Assembly: GCF_044647545.1 (NCBI RefSeq)
Contig: NZ_CP172818.1
DNA: 64,000 nucleotides
Direction: 5' to 3' (one strand)
Source: Escherichia coli
Lineage (GTDB): Bacteria; Pseudomonadota; Gammaproteobacteria; Enterobacterales; Enterobacteriaceae
In this document: positions 21,951 to 23,434 of the stretch, piece after piece
Position numbering within the stretch: position 1 is the first letter of the stretch
How the letters are laid out: each line of letters starts with the position of its first letter
Made by a program: the position numbers and the translations under genes
Notes under the pieces: generated by a model
What the model was told of the DNA's origin: nothing
The model's input: only the letters and a program-made list of their open reading frames with translations
Database searches by the model: none

Positions 21951-23434
21951 CTACCCATCTGGTCTGGTTTCGCCAGGATTTACGTCAGCACGATAATCTC
22001 GCGCTGGCTGCCGCCTGCCGCAATTCGTCTGCGCGCGTGCTGGCGTTGTATATCGCTACCCCACGCCAGTGGGCGGCGCATAATATGTCGCCGCGTCAGG
22101 CTGAATTTATCAATGCACAACTGAACGGGCTACAAATCGCGCTGGCGGAAAAAGGCATTCCTTTGCTGTTTCATGAAGTGGATGACTTTGCCGCCAGCGT
22201 CGAAATAGTTAAACAGGTGTGCGCGGAAAATCGTGTTACCCATCTGTTTTATAACTATCAGTATGAGGTGAATGAGCGGGCGCGGGATGTGCAGGCTGAG
22301 AGGGCGCTGCGTAACGTGGTGTGTGAAGGATTTGACGACGGCGTGATCCTGCCGCCGGGGGCGGTGATGACTGGCAATCATGAGATGTACAAAGTCTTTA
22401 CGCCATTTAAAAACGCCTGGCTTAAACGGCTGCGAGAAGGGATGCCGGAGTGCGTCGCTGCGCCAAAAGTACGTAGTAGCGGATCGATAGATCCCGCGCC
22501 ATCCATTACGCTGAATTATCCTCGTCAGCCTTTCGATACTGCGCATTTCCCGGTGGAAGAGAAAGCGGCGATTGCGCAATTACGCCAGTTTTGCCAGAAC
22601 GGTGCCGGAGAGTATGAGCAACAGCGAGATTTCCCTGCGGTAGAAGGCACCAGCCGTTTGTCCGCCAGCCTGGCAACGGGCGGGTTATCGCCTCGCCAGT
22701 GTTTGCATCGCCTGTTGGCGGAACAGCCGCAGGCGCTGGACGGTGGGGCCGGTAGTATCTGGCTTAATGAGCTGATCTGGCGCGAGTTTTACCGTCATCT
22801 GATAACGTATTACCCCTCGCTGTGTAAACATCGTCCGTTTATTGTCTGGACCGACCGCGTGCAGTGGCAGAGCAATTCCGCGCATTTAAAGGCCTGGCAG
22901 GAAGGCAAAACGGGATACCCGATTGTTGATGCTGCCATGCGTCAGCTTAACAGCACCGGCTGGATGCATAACCGGCTACGGATGATTACAGCCAGTTTTT
23001 TGGTGAAAGATTTATTGATCGACTGGCGCGAAGGTGAGCGATATTTCATGTCGCAGCTGATTGATGGTGATTTGGCAGCCAATAACGGTGGCTGGCAGTG
23101 GGCCGCTTCAACCGGAACCGATGCAGCGCCGTATTTTCGTATTTTTAACCCGACAACCCAGGGCGAGAAATTTGACCGCGAAGGCGAGTTTATCCGCCAG
23201 TGGCTACCGGAACTGCGCGATGTGCCAGGGAAAGTGGTGCATGAGCCGTGGAAGTGGGCGCAGAAAGCAGGTGTGACGCTGGATTATCCGCAACCGATAG
23301 TTGATCACAAAGAGGCAAGGCTGCGAACGCTGGCAGCGTACGAAGAAGCGAGGAAGTCTGATAAAACGCAGCGAGCGTTTTATCAGGCATGGTGCTGGCT
23401 TATTAAGACTCCAGCGCCAGCGCGCGGTTTCTGA
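21947..23434 (+). CDS. phr: Deoxyribodipyrimidine photolyase
   Basis: [23 protein letters not shown]... with photolyase/FAD-binding domains; the open frame is 495 aa and its last 32 bp overlap the convergent dtpD 3' end, so the 3' end is uncertain. Confidence 0.85.

Follow-up and report, generated by a model that had tools for sequence, protein, structure and literature searches.

An overlong phrB reading frame in an Escherichia coli genome is probably a consensus scar at a REP hairpin

The phrB-dtpD locus and its photolyase

The stretch of DNA considered here, referred to as the window, comprises 64,000 nucleotides of an Escherichia coli contig (NZ_CP172818.1) and includes phrB, the gene for a class I CPD photolyase, which converges on dtpD (Table 1). 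The ybgA-phrB-dtpD synteny and the ATGA overlap at which the phrB start meets ybgA are both retained. The first-pass annotation had described phrB as open for 495 aa and as running 32 bp into the 3' end of dtpD, and these coordinates were reproduced from the list of open reading frames and from the sequence itself. It had also given a length of about 472 aa for E. coli photolyase, in agreement with every annotated E. coli genome inspected, in which phrB measures 1419 bp (472 aa). The spacer between the two genes is 41 bp in normal genomes and 149 bp in K-12.

Up to its end, the encoded protein shares with E. coli PhrB (1DNP) its domains and its tryptophan triad. Pfam searches of the 495-aa sequence recover DNA_photolyase (PF00875, aa 5-168, 1e-43) and FAD_binding_7 (PF03441, aa 272-466, 3.7e-88), residues 1-470 of the solved structure are colinear with aa 2-471 at 95% identity, and Trp306/359/382 are intact in an alignment of homologues. 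The window protein differs from 1DNP in that its last two residues are replaced and 23 more are added, an ending present in no other photolyase searched.

Table 1. Features of the window discussed in the text
Feature	Position	Strand	Basis or remark
phrB, class I CPD photolyase, 495 aa	21947..23434	+	ATG start 21947, TGA stop 23432-23434; ORF list and sequence
dtpD, 493 aa, gene identical to that of FDAARGOS_497	23403..24884	-	ORF list and alignment
Overlap of extended phrB frame and dtpD 3' end, 32 bp	23403..23434		convergent frames
4-nt deletion relative to all other E. coli genomes	23354..23356		alignments
Ancestral tandem stops TGA (23359-23361) TAA (23362-23364), now out of frame	23359..23364	+	sequence, alignment
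25 frameshifted codons replacing the ancestral Gly-Val end	23357..23431	+	sequence; no homologue over the tail
REP-like hairpin, 14-bp stem, AGCGA loop	23356..23388		folds; alignment with the distal REP in the local BIME of K-12
rhsC block	13375..21393		about 96% identity, compared with K-12 and three project genomes
ybgOPQD island	30187..35551		99.65% identical to K-12
mngR-mngA-mngB island, absent from FDAARGOS_497	47178..53106		100.00% identical to K-12
sdhB-sucA intergenic junction, garbled and truncated relative to all natural genomes	40737..40745		K-12 has a BIME there
sucB-sucC spacer, 4 nt missing from a palindromic hairpin loop	44980..44987		K-12 has about 190 nt of REPs there
tRNA-Lys gene (63074-63145) with 1 nt deleted from its T-loop	63133	+	adjoins a K-12-versus-sample spacer indel

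A deletion upstream of an intact stop

The four nucleotides missing near the end of phrB are AAGG or AGGA, the placement being ambiguous by one base. Where the reference reads GCG AGG AAA GGA GTC TGA TAA, the window reads GCG AGG AAG TCT GAT AAA ACG; the intact junction is GAGGAAAGGAGTCTGA and the deletion junction of the window is GAGGAAGTCTGA. With two codons left before the ancestral tandem stops, this deletion throws phrB out of frame, and the gene is for this reason 23 codons too long and overlaps dtpD. The first-pass annotation had tentatively attributed the extension to a lost stop codon, an explanation that the alignment contradicts, since the stop is intact and the frame is carried past its TGA by a deletion eight bases upstream. 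The position that it had predicted for the normal stop, near 23365, was accurate, as restoring the four missing bases puts the ancestral TGA at exactly 23363-23365.

In the shifted frame Lys470 is kept, the terminal Gly-Val becomes Ser-Asp, and 23 further codons follow as the frame crosses a REP-like hairpin and then reads the final ten codons of dtpD in antisense (32 nt) to the next TGA. An open run of 25 codons is close to the chance expectation following a frameshift (a mean of 64/3, or about 21 codons), and the open frame therefore needs no special explanation.

Cryptochromes differ from photolyases by C-terminal extensions. This is the sole analogy that favors regarding the extension as both real and functional, either as a cryptochrome-like regulatory tail or as a selected overlap coupling the expression of phrB and dtpD, and the 25 residues that follow the ARK motif in the window do include an aromatic, hydrophobic stretch. 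The remaining evidence argues against such a function, which we consider very improbable. Across the Enterobacteriaceae, photolyases of 470-480 aa end within a few residues of the ...AYE(A/E)ARK helix, and the window protein does not. Reference photolyases do not share the extended C-terminus: the 120 listed homologues from this family cover 95% of the query, are 470-480 aa long and, where aligned, terminate 0-8 residues from ...ARK, and no homologue of the tail was found among them. No Pfam domain was found in the tail. AlphaFold2, given the 495-aa sequence and an alignment of 20 sequences, assigned pLDDT values below 50 to aa 473-495, within a model that was poor as a whole (mean pLDDT 64.6) and was not used to place the tail. 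The length of the tail is chance-like, its sequence is that of an out-of-frame REP joined to antisense dtpD, and it is conserved nowhere that was searched; the conserved or structured tail with homologues that characterizes a cryptochrome extension is thus not what is found. It is also conceivable, by analogy, that a real deletion has produced an accidental aromatic tail of 25 residues that folds back in the manner of a cryptochrome, altering the activity or stability of the photolyase. The odds of this are slighter still; were it true, the locus would offer a snapshot of a REP element and antisense coding sequence being recruited as the regulatory tail of a photolyase.

The REP hairpin at the phrB 3' end

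The hairpin now enclosed by the extended frame is itself unaltered by the deletion, recurs in identical form in the intact relatives and has the same fold in FDAARGOS_497, the nearest natural relative. REPs are recognizable as imperfect palindromes, roughly 35 nt long, that lie between convergent genes and fold into a stable stem-loop, and this description fits the element, for which folding z-scores of -3.7 (101-nt segment) and -5.9 (58-nt segment) were obtained. Its stem of 14 bp aligns to the distal REP of the BIME at the K-12 phrB-dtpD junction. REPs and BIMEs typically have many copies scattered over a genome; this A/T-rich variant with a perfect stem occupied a median of 1 place per genome, a count in which BLAST at this query length finds near-identical copies only. 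Searches of the window with the REP consensus matched at this locus and found no other copy. A promoter and terminator scan of positions 23000-23800 found no terminator-like site, and one weak promoter-like match on the minus strand.

In K-12, phrB ends ...KGK TAA and a 108-nt BIME of two REPs separates it from dtpD, whereas the FDAARGOS_497-like allele has a single REP; the 5' arm of a perfect REP hairpin contains, in most non-K-12 E. coli, both the final codon of phrB (GTC or GCC) and the TGA TAA after it. Comparison of these two arrangements indicates that REP turnover has reshaped the 3' end of phrB. RNase R and PNPase have been said in general terms to target mRNAs containing REPs (PMC12320835), and our search of the literature on REPs near stop codons returned nothing beyond that statement.

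The extended end in other genomes

The deletion junction had no match among the other complete E. coli genomes searched, a collection of 5,426 from which CP172818 is absent; the best match across the junction among the 5,354 matching records was 97.4%, which equals the 4-nt gap. In an exact scan of metagenome contigs the deletion junction was matched 0 times and the intact junction in 36 contigs. A real allele should appear in independent data, and this one appears in no complete genome of the collection and in none of the metagenome contigs scanned. WP_400165217.1 is a database entry for precisely this 495-aa protein, placed on one contig of 4,499,902 bp; a contig look-up recorded no contig encoding it.

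Other lesions at the phrB site were found, among the complete E. coli genomes searched, in BS-01 (CP172816) and BS-04 (CP172819) only. These two genomes carry a 5-nt deletion (GAGG-----AGCC) in an allele background that differs from that of the window, and their phrB frames are 486 aa long and overlap dtpD by 6 bp. Both are stool isolates from a single project on a livestock farm in Sukabumi, Indonesia. The window genome apparently comes from this same project, and the new protein accessions of BS-01 and BS-04 (WP_400165669/671) neighbor that of the window (WP_400165217). A further project genome, HS-01 (CP172817), has a K-12-type phrB end with the 108-nt BIME and no lesion. The project chromosomes measure 4.49-4.52 Mb, and a literature search for the Sukabumi genome assemblies found no paper. 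In BS-01, dtpD is annotated as frameshifted, one C having been lost from a run of five (ACG-CCCCAG).

These distributions bear directly on whether the four bases were lost in a real and recent mutation. The locus would then hold an ordinary private frameshift (stop-loss) allele with an intact catalytic core and an unselected tail of 25 residues, neutral or mildly harmful to protein stability. Speculatively, ribosomes would melt the REP hairpin after the normal stop, and a real deletion might affect the stability of the protein or REP-mediated protection of the mRNA. Such an allele is compatible with the cleanness of the deletion, which has 0 mismatches in the flanking 8.8 kb, with the intact state of both Pfam domains, the 1DNP alignment and the tryptophan triad, and with the presence of the exact protein on record; slippage could be favored by the sequence context, AGGAAAGGAG, in which a short and imperfect direct repeat adjoins the hairpin. 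In ordinary stop-loss alleles, too, an indel of a length not divisible by three closely precedes the stop, and translation continues to a chance stop. The window allele differs from them in that it probably does not exist in the organism: the lesion recurs within one sequencing project only, there in two deletion sizes and on two allele backgrounds, the other complete genomes searched lack it, and all 36 metagenome contigs are intact. We therefore regard a real mutation as unlikely, and the composition of the surrounding sequence, described below, with similar scars at other BIME sites, also weighs against it.

Chimeric composition of the window

The window is a chimera of FDAARGOS_497 and K-12 sequence. 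Positions 1-13374, 53107-59159 and, bar the 4-nt gap, 21394-30186 match FDAARGOS_497 with 0 mismatches, and 58660-64000 does so bar one base. Small indels are also correct in this shared sequence, as seen in the segment core1, in which K-12 has 7 gaps against FDAARGOS_497 and the window has 0. Set into this background are islands of K-12 type. Over 5,929 nt the mngRAB island has 0 mismatches with K-12 laboratory strains, and its flanks are near-identical (left) and 100% identical (right) to FDAARGOS_497, which at this site carries a 22-kb hut/methylaspartate island. A second island of FDAARGOS_497, of the TRAP/UxaA type, measures 8 kb, and at both sites the genes found in the window are those of K-12. 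Reference-identical sequence at a place where the nearest natural relative lacks the locus is a mark of assembly artefact, and mngRAB provides an instance of it.

The rhsC block has, genome-wide, no match above about 96.6%, an identity of the kind that collapsed paralogue reads would produce. Within this block, upstream of ybgA, is a truncated ISAs1/H-repeat transposase ORF of 197 aa (20589-21182), which is a possible pseudogene comparable to K-12 ybfL/ybfD, or else a possible product of collapsed paralogues.

A natural recombinant between K-12 and a phylogroup-F strain was also considered as the source of this composition, and was rejected; it needs repeated double crossovers exactly at island borders, and it leaves the scars at the junctions unexplained.

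Matching scars at other repeat sites

The edge of the 108-nt BIME indel is exactly where the phrB lesion lies, and this lesion is not the only one of its kind. All of the large K-12-versus-FDAARGOS_497 indels in shared sequence, at four of four sites in the window, are scarred by a unique small deletion. At the sdhB-sucA junction, one-piece matches were obtained from BS-01, BS-04 and HS-01 only, each of which has a different short scramble at that spot. The sucB-sucC lesion is unique to the window among the complete E. coli genomes searched, the best match being 97.0%. In one tRNA-Lys copy of the lysT-valT array the T-loop is short of a T (GGTTCGAA-CCTGC), and the Rfam score of this copy is 74.4 rather than 79.2 bits; this deletion is probably another scar. 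Lesions at the boundaries of large indels that are limited to a single project are to be expected of an artefact, and that pattern is found here and is shared by BS-01, BS-04 and HS-01. The Rfam search of this region also returned the CpoB/ybgF thermometer (61514-61652, 142 bits) and an RtT RNA (62586-62754) that overlaps the first tRNA of the lysT array.

A consensus scar as the probable origin of the extension

The deletion and its effects on the frame, their absence elsewhere, the K-12/FDAARGOS_497 chimera and the matching scars at BIME sites are direct observations. The presence of K-12 islands in a core identical to FDAARGOS_497, together with scars at BIME indels, points to a consensus built on a K-12 scaffold, and the extension of phrB is thus probably an assembly scar. 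We put the probability that the 4-nt gap is a scar of assembly or consensus calling, and not a bacterial mutation, at about 0.8. We infer the assembly method itself, reference-guided on a K-12 scaffold, from patterns in the sequence only. Scars of reference-guided assembly have the same hallmarks as the window, namely islands identical to the reference, the sample's own islands missing, losses at the boundaries of large indels or in repeats, and restriction to one project.

The most likely course of events is that reads of a FDAARGOS_497-like strain were placed on an E. coli K-12 scaffold. The sampled strain would have had a single REP between phrB and dtpD, with the last phrB codon and TGA TAA within the REP stem, and the consensus would have lost four bases at what was, between reference and sample, a complex indel at the BIME. 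The frame, shifted two codons before its stop, would then cross the REP hairpin and continue for 32 nt in antisense dtpD until it reached another TGA. In the living strain phrB is probably of normal length, 472 aa, and ends ...ARKGV, with TGA TAA following in the REP stem. The first-pass annotation had proposed that the last 23 or so codons were a strain-specific extension; their absence from reference photolyases stands, and the extension is probably specific to the assembly and not to the strain, given lesions confined to the genomes of one project and the hallmarks of a K-12-scaffolded consensus.

Some observations run against an artefact. A loss of 4 nt outside a homopolymer is atypical of random sequencing error, and the 8.8 kb around it are clean; strains of one farm could share real peculiarities; and the NCBI pipeline accepted the 495-aa protein as intact. 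An argument from plain affine-gap alignment scoring did not reproduce the exact loss of 4 nt. Random sequencing error of a generic kind was itself rejected as the source, as the flanks are error-free and the lesions lie specifically at large indel boundaries.

For photolyase biology there is little to learn from the extended frame, and its practical value is as a flag of data quality. The 495-aa and 486-aa RefSeq phrB proteins (WP_400165217.1, WP_400165671.1, WP_400168405.1) are probably artefactual. They belong to genomes that bear the label complete and look, from their sequence, like K-12-scaffolded chimeras in which the strain's own islands are missing and K-12 sequence stands in their place. 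Such records can contaminate analyses of pangenomes, of pseudogenes and of the evolution of REPs and BIMEs.

The 5' end of phrB has irregular records of its own. In two E. coli assemblies the photolyase is fused to YbgA (PF08349) in proteins of 595 aa, presumably because the ybgA stop within the ATGA overlap was lost, a 5' mirror image of the case at the phrB 3' end.
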